This document shows positions 2,730 through 10,789 of a DNA stretch of 11,320 bases, in pieces. The stretch is from a virus. Both the position numbers and the translations under genes were made by a program. Position 1 is the stretch's first letter. Each line of letters begins with the position of its first letter. The notes beneath the pieces are model-generated. The model was not told the DNA's origin, made no database searches, and saw only the letters and a list, made by a program, of their open reading frames with translations. The stretch lies in the UHGV virus genome UHGV-0170512; one strand, given 5' to 3'.

Positions 2730-3212
2730 TCATCGAAGGCATTGCGTCCTGATATATTCCTGAAGCGTTCTCAGTGCTGTCTGGTCTCTGATGATTCCGT
2801 CCCGGATACCGAGAACGTTTCGTCCAGCAACTGGAGAGAGTTCGACGGTGGCATCATTGCCCATGCCGGAGGCGCTGGAGGTTTCGGCTGAGGATGGCAC
2901 AGGGCATTTTCCTTTGACGAGCACCCGACCACCATTATCAAGCTTGCGCCGAAGAGCATCATTTTCAGCTTTCGCATCAGCCAACTCCTTCGTGTATTTA
3001 GCATCGAGTACATCAGCAGCACGCTGGCGTTGCTGCATGTCAGTAATGGTGGCGGTCGCCTGCTTCAGCTCACTGACTTTTTTATCACGCTGTTCTTTGT
3101 AGGCGATGGCGTTATCACGGTAATGATTGACCGCCCACGACAGGCAGACGATGATGCAAATAACCAGAGCATAAATAATCGCGGCGACTCTGCTCACTGA
3201 TCTATCCCCCAA
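2730..3212 (-). CDS. Rz: Rz i-spanin (inner-membrane spanin subunit)
   Basis: 160-aa ORF; N-terminal segment [38 protein letters not shown] closely parallels lambda Rz ([39 protein letters not shown]), with coiled-coil periplasmic domain and C-terminal Cys. The true start may be a few codons inside the track ORF; it overlaps the endolysin 3' end. Confidence 0.85.
2771..2977 (-). CDS. Rz1: Rz1 o-spanin lipoprotein, embedded in the +1 frame of Rz
   Basis: Track ORF 2771..3022 trimmed to the internal start [22 protein letters not shown]; lipobox-like VVGC followed by a proline-rich segment ([11 protein letters not shown]) parallels lambda Rz1 (MLKLKMML...VVVGC...PPPPPAW). Lies entirely inside Rz. 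Confidence 0.75.
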
Positions 3213-4510: not shown

Positions 4511-4869
4511 TTATGATGATGCCGGTGCATTTATCTCCAGCGCCAGACTTTCTATCTCAACGCCATACGTTGCATTTTTGGTAATATCCGTCAGCGTCAG
4601 TGCATTTAGTCCCACTGCCAGACTGTCTTTTATGGCCTGGAATGCCGGGCCAGTACGATGACGTAGTATCACTCCGGCTCAGTTGCACCACTGACCACCA
4701 CATCACCTTCTGCTGCAATCGCCTGCATCAGGGTATAAGGGGTTATGGCCACCGGACTACCAAACGGCTGCCAGCCCTCTTTCAGTTTATGTGTCAGCTT
4801 TTCCGCAAGATCTGACGGCGGCGCCGCCCTGACAACATCATAGTGTTTAAATGCCATGGTTCTTTCCAC
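4511..4869 (-). pseudogene. DUF1737-like gene (NanS-p N-terminal-domain-like), apparently frameshifted/truncated
   Basis: Track ORF 4669..4869 (66 aa, MERTMAFKHYDVVRAAPPSDLAEKL...) stops at 4669-4671; a second stop-free frame of 55 codons ([55 protein letters not shown]) opens just after a stop at 4679-4681 and runs to 4511, overlapping the first frame in 4669-4678. Consistent with a single indel. The first Met may be the third residue (MAFKHYDVV). Confidence 0.35.
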
Positions 4870-5117
4870 TATCTGAAAAATAATTCTTTAAAATACCTGA
4901 CATGTAATACAGAAAAAACACAAAACTATACCTTAAATAAAAACCTGATTATCAAGCAGATATGCATGGATAAACTACAAGACGAGATATAAACCACCCT
5001 GCATTTAAATAAACAATAAACAACATCAGAAAAATAATTCTGCTCTATGGTTTACATTCAAAAATATCATTTATACTTTTCAGGACATCACCAGCAAGGC
5101 ATAAACAAGGAAACCAA

Positions 5118-5453
5118 ATGAAGTGGATTGTGATTGATACAGTTATCCAGCCATCATGCGGAATATCTTTTTCAGTCATATGGAGTAAAATAAAATTAAT
5201 AATCTGGTATCAATCGGATGCTTTCTTACCTCCTGAAAGTATATTTACACTGACTCACACAGGCATCATGCTCAATAACAAAGTGCTACCTGTAACCATT
5301 TACAACGTAGTACCATTCAATAAAACATTCTGGAATTTAATCAAAAACAGCCAGGAATGCCCTACAAATACAGATAACGTATTGAATGAATGCTTTAATA
5401 ACCGTTGCACTCTGCAAATATGTCCTTATGGACTAAAACAACAAAGTCCATAA
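5118..5453 (+). CDS. Hypothetical 111-aa protein, AT-rich convergent moron ORF
   Basis: Only credible plus-strand ORF in the window. Strong SD AAGGAA 7 nt upstream of the ATG at 5118, preceded by a ~250 bp very AT-rich stretch (4870-5117). Visibly lower GC than the phage backbone; 5 Cys; no recognisable family. Confidence 0.45.
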
Positions 5454-5487
5454 GGAGTTTACTCACATCTGACAAAATCAATATAAA

Positions 5488-5509
5488 CAGCCCCTCCGGA
5501 GAGGGGCTG
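5488..5509 (-). terminator. GC hairpin, likely Rho-independent terminator for minus-strand transcription (possibly also stops the convergent plus-strand ORF)
   Basis: CAGCCCCTC-CGGA-GAGGGGCTG, 9-bp perfect stem; on the minus strand it is followed by TTTATATTGATTTTG. On the plus strand it sits 35 nt after the 5118..5453 stop but has no U-tract. Confidence 0.4.
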
Positions 5510-5900
5510 GAGAGTGGCGCTATGTGCCATTGCATGGTGCCGGGTGCCTCCCGGTGAATTCAGTACCAGCACCTGAATCCGCGATTATCCCATATACCTA
5601 CTCGCTGATTGCCCCTCCGCACAGGGGGATTCACCATGCCAGTTTCTTTTAACAAACTCCCCGCAAACCAGACAACAGTCAACCGCCTGAATTGTGAAGT
5701 ATTTAAAAATTTCTCCCGCTAACTGATACCCGGCTAACAGTCTGGCGTTTTCTTTTTCAGCAACGGAAAAGCAACAACCACCACACCTGCCACCAGCACA
5801 CCGTCAGCCAGCACTGACATTATCCGGCTGCTGCAATGCCATTCACAAAAACAGTAAGCAATCACTTTTTACCGTAACAGGTGATAATCCAGATATGTAT

Positions 5901-6227
5901 CTACCCCAGATGAGTAATCCGAAGTTCATCCATACCACAGGTCCTGGCTATTCTGTTGTACTCCTGAACAAGAGCAAATAATTCTGAATTAGCAACCATG
6001 AACTCATCGCTAACCCTCTGTATAGCATCACTATTCAGAATAATAACGTCTCTTCCCGAAAGACGATCAGGAGTACAAAACAAAACTGTCAAACGGCTGA
6101 AGGCCTTTGCTCGTGCTGCATTGACTATATCAATACGCTGCCTAAGGATGAAACACCCCGACGCCTCATCAATATTCACTCTACCCACACCATATGAATG
6201 ATAAATATTTAATGCTGAAAAAACCAT
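5901..6227 (-). CDS. Hypothetical protein (108 aa from the internal ATG); doubtful
   Basis: Track ORF 5901..6254 starts at TTG; the first ATG is at 6227-6225 (MVFSALNIYH...) with a weak SD. No recognisable motifs; immediately downstream of the tRNA cluster. Confidence 0.25.
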   Translation of the reverse strand: MVFSALNIYHSYGVGRVNIDEASGCFILRQRIDIVNAARAKAFSRLTVLFCTPDRLSGRDVIILNSDAIQRVSDEFMVANSELFALVQEYNRIARTCGMDELRITHLG

Positions 6228-6364
6228 TAGACCGTATAACAAACACTCAATCAATACTTAACAGAACTTTTATTTTTGACAAACATATAATATTTTCAAC
6301 AATATCCTGAGCCAGGTATATTCCAGTATAAGGCTCTGCCGGAAGGAATCTGGAAGAATGAATA

Positions 6365-6441
6365 TGGCGCGTTGTACTGGATTCGAACCACTGACCGATT
6401 GCTTAGAAGGCAATTGCTCTGTCCTGCTGAGCTAACAACGC
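6365..6441 (-). tRNA. tRNA-Arg (anticodon UCU)
   Basis: Minus strand GCGTTGTTAGCTCAGCAGGACAGAGCAATTGCCTTCTAAGCAATCGGTCAGTGGTTCGAATCCAGTACAACGCGCCA: 7-bp acceptor stem, D arm GCTC/GAGC, anticodon loop CTTCTAA, T loop TTCGAAT, encoded CCA. One G:G mismatch in the T stem. Confidence 0.8.
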
Positions 6442-6454
6442 AGAATACCGATAA

Positions 6455-6531
6455 TGGACCACCATCGGGGACCCGAACTCCGCGCAACCAGCTTCGAAAG
6501 CTGGCGCTCTTTCCTGATGAGCTAATGGCGG
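6455..6531 (-). tRNA. tRNA-Arg (anticodon UCG)
   Basis: Minus strand CCGCCATTAGCTCATCAGGAAAGAGCGCCAGCTTTCGAAGCTGGTTGCGCGGAGTTCGGGTCCCCGATGGTGGTCCA: acceptor stem with one G:U pair, perfect anticodon stem CCAGC/GCTGG, loop TTTCGAA, encoded CCA. Non-canonical T loop TTCGGGT (G at position 58) and one A:C mismatch in the T stem. Confidence 0.7.
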
Positions 6532-6538
6532 TATGTGA

Positions 6539-6614
6539 TGGTGGCCCTTGCTGGATTTGAACCAGCGACCTGGCGATTATGAGTCGCTCGCTCTCACCAC
6601 TGAGCTAAAGGGCC
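6539..6614 (-). tRNA. tRNA with CAU anticodon (Ile2-type, ileX-like, or Met)
   Basis: Minus strand GGCCCTTTAGCTCAGTGGTGAGAGCGAGCGACTCATAATCGCCAGGTCGCTGGTTCAAATCCAGCAAGGGCCACCA: perfect acceptor and T stems, anticodon loop CTCATAA; closely resembles the E. coli ileX tRNA as I recall it. Confidence 0.85.
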
Positions 6615-6736: not shown

Positions 6737-7456
6737 TTAACGAACTCTGACTACATTAATTTCAAAGTCATCAATCTGCCCGCTATTAAGTATAACGAAT
6801 GCAGAACTCCCATTACTGTACGATTTCGATAAAACCAGACGATCATCATAGCGTGCAAGAACGTAATACCAAGTATTCTCATAGTGGATCGTCTGATATT
6901 CCCTCTTAAACTGGGGTTTATACCAACCGGCAATAAGAGAGAATGTCCAGAAATAAATCATGAATCCAGCCATAATAAACTCAATTCGGTGATGGCGAAT
7001 AAAAGACACTTCCGAAAAACATTTGACTGAAATAAGTCTTCTTCCTGACCTGACAAAAAGCGTAATTGTAAAGGCAGCAATAACACAAAAAAACAGCACA
7101 TCTGGCTCAACGTGCTGATGAATTACCGAAAACTCCAGAACAGGCGGAATAAAAAGCAGCAATATTGCCAGAAAAAGTCTGATAAAACTCAAATTCTGTA
7201 TATTGTTTTTTTGTTTTATGCCTAAAAAGAAAACAATACCTACTCCCCATCCAGTAAGGAATATAACGATAACGCTCACAGCATAAAACAAACTTCGGGC
7301 CACATCATCAACGCCAACCCCGACGATCCACCATGGAAAGCCATAGTAAAAGGAAGTCCCCCATCCATAGAAATAAGCGCTTCCCCATCCAAGACAGCCC
7401 ATATAAGCAATAAAAAGTGAAGAGTTCCTCAGCAGAGTGCTGTCATCCATACCCAT
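6737..7456 (-). CDS. Uncharacterised polytopic membrane protein (about 5 predicted TM helices plus ~60-aa C-terminal soluble tail)
   Basis: 239-aa ORF, first gene after the tR'-like terminator. Successive hydrophobic, aromatic-rich segments (FIAYMGCLGWGSAYFYGWG..., LFYAVSVIVIFLTGWGVGIVFFLGI, FIRLFLAILLLFIPPVLEF, VLFFCVIAAFTITLFV, IMAGFMIYFWTFSLIAGWY). Visibly AT-rich. Likely start is the second ATG (7450), with GAGAG 6 nt upstream. Confidence 0.6.
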   Translation of the reverse strand: MGMDDSTLLRNSSLFIAYMGCLGWGSAYFYGWGTSFYYGFPWWIVGVGVDDVARSLFYAVSVIVIFLTGWGVGIVFFLGIKQKNNIQNLSFIRLFLAILLLFIPPVLEFSVIHQHVEPDVLFFCVIAAFTITLFVRSGRRLISVKCFSEVSFIRHHRIEFIMAGFMIYFWTFSLIAGWYKPQFKREYQTIHYENTWYYVLARYDDRLVLSKSYSNGSSAFVILNSGQIDDFEINVVRVR

Positions 7457-7591: not shown

Positions 7592-7616
7592 AAAAAACCC
7601 GCTCGATGGCGGGCTG
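7592..7616 (-). terminator. tR'-like Rho-independent terminator downstream of Q
   Basis: Minus strand AGCCCGC-CATCGA-GCGGG followed by TTTTTTATATC; about 80-100 nt downstream of the Q stop, as expected for the short pR' transcript of lambdoid phages. Confidence 0.55.
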
Positions 7617-7695: not shown

Positions 7696-8517
7696 CTATC
7701 GCGTTACCCTCTTTAACTGCCGCTCCGCCCATGCCTCTTCAATGTCAAACCGAACCACCAACGTATCGTAAAAGCGTTTCACTGATTTTTTCCACGTATC
7801 AAGCGTGATAGCACTCGTCACTTTGCGTATGGCATTAAATGCCTCCGTTGATGGTAGTCTTTCATAGCCCCGACCGCCACAACGCTGGCAGTTCCTGATT
7901 ACAGGCATACCCCGTTTTTCCGACTCTTCACGATGAATGGCAACACCACGCCCACGGCAGTCTTTACAGGCAGTGGAAATCTCCCCCTTCCCTTTACATT
8001 CAGGACAAGAAACTTTCACCACCTCCCGGATTTTTTTCCATTCTTCCCAGTAAGACGGATACACACCTTTCGTACACTTTGCCCATACCGGCGGCTTACC
8101 ATCCGGATACTGGACCTTGTTTGTAAAAACTACGCTTTCAATAAATTTTTCCCCATAGCAACAAGGGCACTGCTTTTTACTCGCTGCGCTGCGGGCATAA
8201 TCCTCAAAAGCGTACGAAGCCATAATGCGCATCACTACCGGTTTTATTTCTGCCGGAAGTTTTCTTAACGCCGCCACGCGATCGCACTGACTTAATGCAT
8301 AATCTGCCAGTAATTCTGTTGCCCGCGCCCTGTCATTCATACTAATACCCATTTTCCCCAGGAACGCAGAAAATCCCATCTCAGCCCGGTTTTGTGTCAT
8401 ACCCTGCGCAGCCATCACATCAGTGATGCTCAGCGCATCTTTTGACGTCGAGACGGATGCATCAGTCAGGCCTGGCGATTTTGGGGAATAGTATTTCGGT
8501 AAATCTTCCAGTCTCAT
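7696..8517 (-). CDS. Q-like late antiterminator (QuuQ-type, zinc-finger Cys pairs)
   Basis: 273-aa ORF with several CxxC pairs (CPCC, CPEC, CKDC, CQRC); positioned after rusA and before a promoter-terminator pair and the lysis genes, the canonical Q position. ATG overlaps the rusA stop (ATGA). Confidence 0.6.
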   Translation of the reverse strand: MRLEDLPKYYSPKSPGLTDASVSTSKDALSITDVMAAQGMTQNRAEMGFSAFLGKMGISMNDRARATELLADYALSQCDRVAALRKLPAEIKPVVMRIMASYAFEDYARSAASKKQCPCCYGEKFIESVVFTNKVQYPDGKPPVWAKCTKGVYPSYWEEWKKIREVVKVSCPECKGKGEISTACKDCRGRGVAIHREESEKRGMPVIRNCQRCGGRGYERLPSTEAFNAIRKVTSAITLDTWKKSVKRFYDTLVVRFDIEEAWAERQLKRVTR

Positions 8518-10397: not shown

Positions 10398-10553
10398 TTA
10401 CTCCTCAGGTTCGTAAGCTGTGAAGACAGCGACCTCCGTCTGGCCGGTTCGGATTCGTACCTCGCAGAGGTCTTTCCTCGTTACCAGTGCCGTCACTATG
10501 ACGGTTAAACAGATGACGATCAGGGCGATTAACATCGCCTTTTGCTGCTTCAT
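10398..10553 (-). CDS. hok: Hok-family type I toxin (HokD/RelF-like), 51 aa
   Basis: Hand-translated, below the ORF-track size cutoff: MKQQKAMLIALIVICLTVIVTALVTRKDLCEVRIRTGQTEVAVFTAYEPEE. Single TM segment and Hok/Gef signature; SD AGGAGAAG 6 nt upstream of the ATG. Confidence 0.85.
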   Translation of the reverse strand: MKQQKAMLIALIVICLTVIVTALVTRKDLCEVRIRTGQTEVAVFTAYEPEE

Positions 10554-10789
10554 AGCCTGCTTCTCCTTGACCTTTCGGTCCGTAAGAGGCTAATCTCTAT
10601 GTGTCGCATAGATATGGCCTCAGATTAATGTTAAGCGTCTTGCAGGACGCGTAATGTTAACTGGGGCTTTTCTCTATCTGCCTTTTGGTGTTCATGCCTG
10701 AGGCAGATAGCCTCAAGCACCCGCAGCAATTCTACTTAACTCACGTCACCTCGCCAATATGAAATCAATCAGAAAGGTGATCCATAAAA

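Follow-up and report, generated by a model that had tools for sequence, protein, structure and literature searches.

A plus-strand gene in the late region of a lambdoid prophage is very probably iraL, a described gene for an RssB anti-adaptor

The closest described counterpart of the locus analyzed here is IraL (c1429) of Escherichia coli CFT073, so named by Hryckowian et al. in mBio in 2014 (PMC4045071). This protein stabilizes sigma-S in unstressed, logarithmic-phase LB cultures and is made from its own sigma-70 promoter (PMC4045071). [quoted passage not shown] The same paper reported 5' RACE of iraL on log-phase CFT073 RNA and gave the location of the gene as “the potB genomic island” (PMC4045071). 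Two further inputs have since been reported: IraL levels are higher in a fur mutant (PMC7157518), and iraL (c1429) mRNA is up by 1.6 log2 units at 37 °C compared with 23 °C (PMC12890032).

Structural information comes from IraM. Residues 1–78 of that protein form a PmrD-like beta-barrel that bridges both domains of RssB, and IraM keeps sigma-S off the alpha4-beta5-alpha5 face of the RssB receiver (PMC10844676). The biological interest of iraL lies in its rewiring of RpoS stability in uropathogenic E. coli and Shigella: a prophage moron reprograms a core host stress pathway. Later reviews and omics studies cite the 2014 work.

How does the present locus compare? The window is an 11,320-nucleotide stretch of virus genome UHGV-0170512. 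Its segment 4870–5560 (691 bp, promoter included) is 100% identical to E. coli CFT073 in a megablast search of complete E. coli genomes, and it is also 100% identical in many other, mostly human-derived, E. coli isolates. The CFT073 counterpart is annotated as “anti-adapter protein IraM” (WP_000871291.1), and translation of the window ORF yields the identical protein. The describing paper separated iraL from iraM by requiring at least 95% identity to CFT073 iraL plus its promoter region; here, the identity is 100% over the 691 bp, and the exact sequence of the transcription start is present. Searches at the level of protein families agree. The NCBIfam model NF007393, “anti-adapter protein IraM,” matched residues 1–110 with 162 bits, its curated cutoff being 121, PHROG 4407 matched at 244 bits, and the sole significant match in a PDB sequence search was 8twd_A, the IraM chain of the IraM-RssB crystal (E = 9e-32, residues 1–78). 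BLASTP aligned the protein to K-12 IraM without gaps over all 107 residues of the latter at 62% identity; the DNA identity was 70.7%.

We conclude, with a probability of roughly 95%, that the plus-strand ORF is iraL, the characterized prophage-borne gene for an RssB anti-adaptor; we encountered no evidence that contradicts this identification. It is a rediscovery: the gene has been in print since 2014, and the identification adds no new biology. It does give the ORF a definite name, and it shows that a reading from the sequence only, which had proposed an autonomous, lysogen-expressed moron, had arrived at the right kind of answer. One element of that reading was mistaken, namely that the protein belongs to no recognizable family, given the matches to NF007393, PDB 8TWD and PHROG 4407. 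A local Pfam scan returned no family up to an E value of 10 for IraL, a 98%-identical relative, a K-12-type IraM representative and a distant member. At odds with this local result, PF11183 (PmrD) is precomputed for IraL/IraM family members in the protein database. PADLOC left IraL unmatched, and a defense-system reading of the protein was rejected on that account.

The features of the locus are as follows.

4858–5084, plus strand: AT-rich regulatory DNA upstream of iraL, bounded by the start codon of the divergent DUF1737 gene and the transcription start
5049–5077, plus strand: core sigma-70 promoter, with a -35-like element GGTTTACA at 5049–5056 and the -10 element TATACT at 5072–5077
5085–5117, plus strand: 5' untranslated region of iraL, 33 nt, with the Shine-Dalgarno sequence AAGGAA at 5107–5112
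5118–5453, plus strand: iraL coding sequence, ATG start, 111 amino acids, RssB anti-adaptor of the IraM/IraL/RssC family
5358–5432, plus strand: family-invariant C-terminal motif C-P-x9-C-x4-C-x4-C-P-Y-G, codons 81–105
5423–5456, plus strand: 12-bp hairpin over the last ten codons and the stop of iraL, -17.5 kcal/mol, z = -4.1, no U-tract
5479–5668, minus strand: prophage sRNA STnc100, convergent neighbor of iraL, Rfam RF02076 at 132.4 bits (gathering threshold 47) over the full-length model
5488–5509, minus strand: GC-rich intrinsic terminator of STnc100 and right boundary of the iraL cassette, 9 pairs (7 GC) followed by TTTATATTGA

That 5118–5453 is a genuine gene, as had been proposed, is borne out by its ATG, its Shine-Dalgarno sequence, the conservation of its frame and its dN/dS. 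The proposal that it is the only credible plus-strand gene in the window was essentially right as well: of ten further plus-strand ORFs that were tested, nine had no PHROG match, and the exception, at 2791–3102, lies antisense inside Rz. The AAGGAA hexamer had been called near-ideal at a 7-nt spacing; the motif is present, and the spacing of 7 nt holds when counted from the GG core, the distance from the end of the hexamer to the ATG being 5 nt. The upstream DNA is as AT-rich as had been claimed, with a GC content of 28.6% over 4870–5117 (248 bp) compared with 34.5% in the coding sequence and 48.5% in the window. The count of five cysteines also held; they are residues 14, 81, 92, 97 and 102.

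The neighborhood was then considered as a whole. On the minus strand, the window holds, in order, a DUF968 gene, RusA, the antiterminator Q (7696–8517), a tR'-like terminator (7596–7615), an ORF for an uncharacterized protein of 239 residues, three tRNAs (6365–6614), a 117-residue PHROG-2873 ORF and STnc100. Beyond iraL, the same strand continues with DUF1737, a class II holin, DUF1327/YdfR, lysozyme, Rz, Rha and the small terminase subunit. The gene is located within the Q-dependent late region of a lambdoid prophage and is antisense to the late genes; the opposite orientation inside a late operon, noted earlier from the sequence, is thus real, with Q through the lysis genes all on the minus strand and iraL on the plus strand.

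Comparison with phages that lack the gene delimited the insertion. Phages PPyecE_EH1910 (L006) and Stx2_PV11-77 (L007) keep both the DUF1737/nanS-p start and STnc100, but the interval between them consists of 264 and 231 bp of unrelated DNA, respectively, versus 672 and 630 bp in the window. The upstream region 4858–5084 is missing from both, and Stx2_PV11-77 retains sequence from window position 5489 onwards. This comparison brackets an iraL cassette of about 630 bp at approximately 4858–5488. Where the gene is present, a near-identical allele (98%) has the same neighborhood in induced E. coli phages, and Stx2a and Stx2c phages have a homologue of about 74–75% identity in the corresponding position, immediately downstream of stx2AB.

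It is correct to describe iraL as a horizontally acquired moron. Four features define such an element, and the gene shows all of them: a promoter of its own, a deviant GC content, expression in the lysogen and presence or absence among otherwise collinear phages. The suggestion of a lysogen-expressed moron made by the sequence-only reading is supported by the log-phase transcription start at 5085, by the ectopic function of the fragment from -100 through the coding sequence, by the empty-site phages and by the low GC content. Because the original paper had placed iraL on “the potB genomic island,” spelling out its moron anatomy within the late region refines that account and is no discovery.

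Taken whole, the window is a mosaic. Among the complete E. coli genomes in the collection, every one covers less than 80% of it; CFT073 covers 72% of it at 95.7% identity, and E. albertii and E. coli loci with an identical IraL match the window in pieces only. Because of this mosaicism, we infer expression in this particular host and prophage only from the identity of the cassette.

The geometry of the locus suggests how phage and moron transcription might coexist. During lytic growth, Q-antiterminated late transcription would read antisense across iraL in order to reach the DUF1737, holin and lysis genes, and to judge from this geometry only, such transcription should oppose iraL expression. 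In the lysogen, the minus-strand terminators upstream (the tR'-like element at 7596–7615 and that of STnc100 at 5488–5509) would insulate iraL.

The start of the iraL transcript could be placed precisely. The published 5'-RACE sequence ACATCACCAGCAAGGCATAAACAAGGAAACCA matches the window once, at 5085–5116, with 0 mismatches (0.00 chance matches expected), which sets the transcription start at 5085 and yields a 33-nt leader. The -10 element TATACT ends 7 nt 5' of that published start. We infer that GGTTTACA is the -35 element; this assignment is supported by the mention in the original paper of a second allele with a -35 point mutation (PMC4045071) and by a C-to-T change in phage 640R1 at the position equivalent to 5055. 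A simple sigma-70 scan missed the mapped promoter and instead listed other AT-rich matches, 6 in number versus 5.0 expected. The upstream region of K-12 iraM does not align to that of iraL, and the region upstream of the Stx2-phage homologue aligns in part.

Could such AT-rich upstream DNA be xenogeneic DNA silenced by H-NS, the regulatory idea of the sequence-only reading, leaving the gene mostly off in the lysogen? The GC contents of 28.6% upstream and 34.5% in the gene make some silencing plausible. H-NS reportedly controls iraM and iraD in K-12, to go by the title of Battesti et al. 2012. A literature search, which did not extend to that paper, found no H-NS data specific to iraL. The activity of the gene in unstressed log phase implies that any silencing of iraL would be incomplete: log-phase LB cultures of both CFT073 and Shigella sonnei transcribe it and show its phenotypic effect, so silencing is partial at most (PMC4045071). 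We thus regard a gene that is mostly off in the lysogen as possible, if on balance doubtful.

Another explanation equates IraL functionally with K-12 IraM, that is, with an anti-adaptor activated by PhoP/PhoQ and induced by Mg2+ starvation rather than acting constitutively in log phase. Membership in the same family speaks for it, as do a direct repeat resembling a PhoP box, TGTTTATTGTTTATTTA, one mismatch away from the consensus, at 5006–5022 on the minus strand (63–79 bp upstream of the transcription start), and a perfect GGTTTA half-site that overlaps the -35 region. The box is not statistically significant, however: 0.19 matches were expected and at least one occurred in 35 of 200 shuffles, a comparison unadjusted for local AT-richness. 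With 3 mismatches allowed, the search gave 39 matches versus 26.6 expected. We make no claim of PhoP control for iraL, as 35 of the 200 shuffles do equally well. PhoP-box sites in the K-12 iraM upstream region carry two mismatches, and the upstream region of iraL cannot be aligned to it. The published expression from a sigma-70-type promoter, with stabilization of sigma-S, in unstressed LB log phase (PMC4045071) also counts against PhoP control, as do the other inputs reported, loss of Fur and the shift to 37 °C (PMC7157518, PMC12890032). Taken together, these points render control of the K-12 IraM type improbable.

The identification as iraL was also examined in terms of protein structure. 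An AlphaFold2 model of IraL was built from a 15-sequence alignment; this is shallow, so only one of five models folded confidently. The pLDDT was 80–93 over residues 1–80 and below 50 over residues 81–111. Foldseek superposed the N-domain model on chain A of 8TWD with a TMt of 0.91 and an rmsd of 1.2 Å. Residues 1–78 are accordingly modeled as a PmrD-like antiparallel beta-barrel with a flanking helix. The N-terminus had been described as hydrophobic, with a hint of secretion. The hydrophobicity is there in mild form (the highest 19-residue Kyte-Doolittle mean is 1.12, with Asp7 inside the segment), but the hint of secretion fell away, since residues 2–11 align to crystallized IraM and are strand beta-1 of a cytoplasmic barrel in the model. 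A signal peptide or transmembrane segment was rejected on the maximal hydropathy, Asp7 and the barrel strand.

Residues that contact RssB in the IraM complex were compared between the two proteins. All five residues of cluster I, the group in contact with the RssB N-terminal domain (I4, I6, W22, K26 and I42), are identical. Cluster II, which contacts the C-terminal domain, retains three of five, the changes T13S and L75I being conservative; cluster III, which contacts the linker and signaling helix, retains two of four (H63N, I64V). This pattern would fit the two-hybrid result in which IraL bound the N-terminal domain only.

The similarity of the model to PmrD raises another scenario: IraL might be a connector of the PmrD kind with a response regulator other than RssB as its target, for instance protecting PmrA~P. 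The N-domain model does match PmrD structures 4HN7 (TMt 0.75), 2JSO and 2RQX, with TMt values spanning 0.69–0.75, and PF11183 is listed for family members. [quoted passage not shown] We consider a target other than RssB very improbable.

For an RssB anti-adaptor encoded by iraL, the published data on the identical CFT073 protein imply that the window protein would bind RssB and stabilize sigma-S. In the lysogen, iraL would be transcribed from its own sigma-70 promoter (start at 5085) in the direction opposite to the phage late operon. The N-terminal PmrD-like barrel of IraL would bind the response-regulator adaptor RssB, and RssB so bound would be unable to deliver sigma-S (RpoS) to ClpXP. Sigma-S would be stabilized during exponential growth, and the general stress response would thereby be primed.

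The reading frame is under purifying constraint to judge from dN/dS, which ranged from 0.10 to 0.17 against diverged homologues (dS > 1; 107 codons, 0 indels); the value was 0.15 against K-12 iraM (dS 1.6) and 0.12 against the Stx2-phage homologue (dS 1.1). Frame-disrupting indels in relatives, which the sequence-only reading had named as the observation that would speak against a gene, were not seen for iraL in those 107 codons. At a query coverage of 80% or more, iraL is present in 1430 of 5426 complete E. coli genomes. The scan of the genome collection added only Escherichia, Shigella and one Citrobacter relative; Salmonella RssC was not recovered. Separately, one frameshifted iraM was encountered, in a single E. 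coli strain (L014). The idea of a chance ORF or decaying pseudogene in AT-rich intergenic DNA, to which the AT-richness of the region, the local Pfam null and the L014 frameshift lend some color, is refuted by these conservation data, by the strong family matches and by the genetics and biochemistry published for the identical gene (PMC4045071).

The C-terminal segment of iraL merits separate comment. Residues 79–107 of IraM were left out of the crystal construct as unstable, and the tail was called less conserved and flexible; zinc and cysteine go unmentioned in that structure paper (PMC10844676). Across 16 family sequences with identities as low as 53%, C81, P82, C92, C97, C102, P103 and G105 never vary, and the Cys4 motif is also present in the Citrobacter homologue. 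Cys14, which contacts RssB, is variable, being Ser in about half of the 16 members. Residues 81–105 of IraL/IraM may conceivably form a small zinc-binding or redox-sensitive knuckle rather than a disordered, dispensable tail, a proposal that we advance tentatively and hold to be rather unlikely. If true, such a knuckle would tune the stability or activity of the anti-adaptor and provide a second, post-translational input to the sigma-S proteolysis switch.

The 3' end of the gene had been described as followed by a strong hairpin. A strong hairpin exists, in the form of two stems, neither of which is a simple downstream element of iraL: the stem at 5423–5456 contains the stop codon and lacks a U-tract, and that at 5488–5509 is the terminator of STnc100. 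The latter belongs to STnc100 and is not dedicated to iraL because its T-run is on the minus strand, where the structure folds with -20.3 kcal/mol (z = -4.05). A terminator scan called no plus-strand intrinsic terminator 3' of iraL and left the 5423–5456 hairpin uncalled. The 5' arm of this hairpin encodes the invariant CPYGL, and its 3' arm supplies four extra residues and the stop. The Stx2-phage homologue is devoid of the 3' arm and the adjoining sequence, and its stop lies 11 nt from the 3' end of STnc100. The 5423–5456 hairpin may be a 3'-end or stabilizer element of iraL, and the STnc100 terminator may stop transcription in both directions.

The prophage sRNA family STnc100 has been described before and is related to PasD (bioRxiv 10.64898/2026.05.13.724894). 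An iraL/iraM-like gene lies tail-to-tail with it in all four phage or prophage loci examined; the arrangement is absent at K-12 iraM. Weaker than the idea of a knuckle is the possibility that iraL forms a conserved functional module with the convergent STnc100, the two sharing a bidirectional terminator.

Set beside known systems, the locus is closest to iraL of CFT073, with which it has in common the 111-residue protein and the DNA of 4870–5560, comprising promoter, transcription start, Shine-Dalgarno sequence, coding sequence and 3' hairpin. CFT073 differs only in the wider prophage: it carries an IS200 where the window has the 239-residue ORF between Q and the tRNAs, and its packaging and Rha region is different.

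K-12 IraM (YcgW), the PhoP-dependent anti-adaptor for Mg2+ starvation, is of the same family and fold; IraL shares with it all five cysteines and the complete set of five residues in contact with the RssB N-terminal domain. The 3' hairpin encodes four C-terminal residues of IraL that IraM lacks; the two genes have unrelated upstream regions; and IraL is reported to bind only the N-domain of RssB and to act in log phase. Unlike iraL, K-12 iraM has no neighboring STnc100; its position is just outside the e14 prophage. The IraM-like gene of Stx2a and Stx2c phages (Stx2_EH2201, phage 2851) resembles iraL in its late-region slot, its convergence with STnc100 and its similar Shine-Dalgarno sequence, but its neighbors are stx2AB, directly upstream, and a full-length nanS-p esterase, downstream, and it encodes 107 residues.

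PmrD, which protects phospho-PmrA, is like IraL a small beta-barrel plus helix that targets a response-regulator receiver; it differs in its low identity (13–21%), in its target, which is PmrA and not RssB, and in having no Cys4 tail. Classical lambdoid morons (bor/iss, lom, stx) have in common with iraL their autonomy, deviant GC content, position between late genes, expression from the prophage and variable presence. In contrast to them, iraL runs antisense to the late operon, with no clear plus-strand intrinsic terminator found, and its product is a cytoplasmic regulator of host proteolysis rather than a surface protein or a toxin.

In the protein database, nearly all members of the IraL family (P0001-P0020) are given a precomputed Pfam assignment, PF11183.15 (PmrD). 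A local hmmscan against Pfam-A covered the window's own reading frame (5118-5450), a 98%-identical relative, the K-12-type IraM cluster representative P0009 and a distant member; no match was returned, even when E-values up to 10 were accepted. Three features mark the 3′ part of the gene and the sequence beyond it:

5358-5432 (iraL codons 81-105), plus strand: C-terminal motif CP-x9-C-x4-C-x4-CPYG
5423-5456, plus strand: iraL 3′ hairpin
5479-5668, minus strand: STnc100 sRNA gene, full length, scoring 132 bits with Rfam RF02076

The C-terminal motif shows no variation across the IraL/IraM family, the Citrobacter member included; Cys14, unlike the motif, is not invariant. The IraM construct that was crystallised had this C-terminal region removed. 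The region is a candidate module that may serve a Zn-related or redox function.

The invariant CPYGL is encoded by the 5′ arm of the 3′ hairpin, while the 3′ arm codes for QQSP, the four residues that IraL has beyond IraM, together with the stop codon. The Stx2-phage homologue differs in having neither this 3′ arm nor the sequence directly after it. Because both are missing there, the hairpin and the extension of the iraL ORF seem, from this sequence comparison, to have been created together by a small insertion.

iraL and STnc100 are convergent in the window, with 26 nt between their 3′ ends. The same tail-to-tail arrangement of STnc100 with an IraL/IraM-like gene was found in two phages and in another E. 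coli prophage. Phage vB_EcoS-640R1 has two STnc100 copies (L003 6362-6550 and 6826-7019); in the Stx2a phage (STnc100 at L004 6335-6546), the gap between the two ends is only 11 nt; and the prophage copy lies at L005 5863-6052. No STnc100 was found next to K-12 iraM.

Two sequence variants of these genes were observed. Phage 640R1 has a C-to-T change in the iraL promoter, at the equivalent of window position 5055 within the -35-like GGTTTACA. A second iraL copy with a -35 point mutation is mentioned for strain JJ1886 in the IraL paper (Hryckowian et al. 2014, PMC4045071), and the two may be the same allele. A frameshift at about codon 22 or just beyond disrupts the iraM copy of E. coli ECGI0523 (L014 4001-4340), which regains frame only at ...KICPYGLK; in this one strain, iraM is a pseudogene.

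Elsewhere in the window, the following features were identified:

2791-3102, plus strand: antisense ORF within Rz, 103 aa, matching PHROG 35444 (unknown function) at E = 1e-17
5901-6254, minus strand: 117-aa ORF (PHROG 2873, unknown function; 231 bits)
6047-6065, minus strand: terminator-like hairpin inside the 117-aa ORF
6365-6614, minus strand: phage tRNA genes for Arg-UCU, Arg-UCG and a third with anticodon CAT, all three downstream of Q
6737-7456, minus strand: 239-aa AT-rich ORF, GC about 0.38-0.40 (PHROG 1521, unknown function; 289 bits)
7596-7615, minus strand: hairpin resembling a terminator, AGCCCGC...GCGGGTT and then TTTTATAT, some 80-100 nt past the stop codon of Q
10398-10722, minus strand: hok/sok-type type I toxin-antitoxin locus
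10398-10553, minus strand: hokD-like ORF, 51 aa
10551-10722, minus strand: sok RNA (Rfam RF01794, 108 bits)

Besides iraL, the 103-aa ORF is the only plus-strand ORF that matches any family; it probably represents an artefact that recurs in annotations. The hairpin beyond Q lies where tR′ of the late promoter module is expected.

RefSeq annotates nothing equivalent to the 117-aa ORF in the homologous part of CFT073. The 239-aa ORF, situated between the Q/tR′-like terminator and the tRNAs, matched nothing in Pfam or NCBIfam, and its sole PADLOC match, AbiC, was insignificant (E = 0.0037). CFT073 has an IS200 in its place, and no gene is annotated at this position in strain 23CRST014. The ORF resembles another moron-like insertion, the second in the window. 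The CAT-anticodon tRNA is called Met by ARAGORN but Ile in the RefSeq annotation of CFT073. The same tRNA trio is present in the Stx2a phage, where it is located upstream of stx2.
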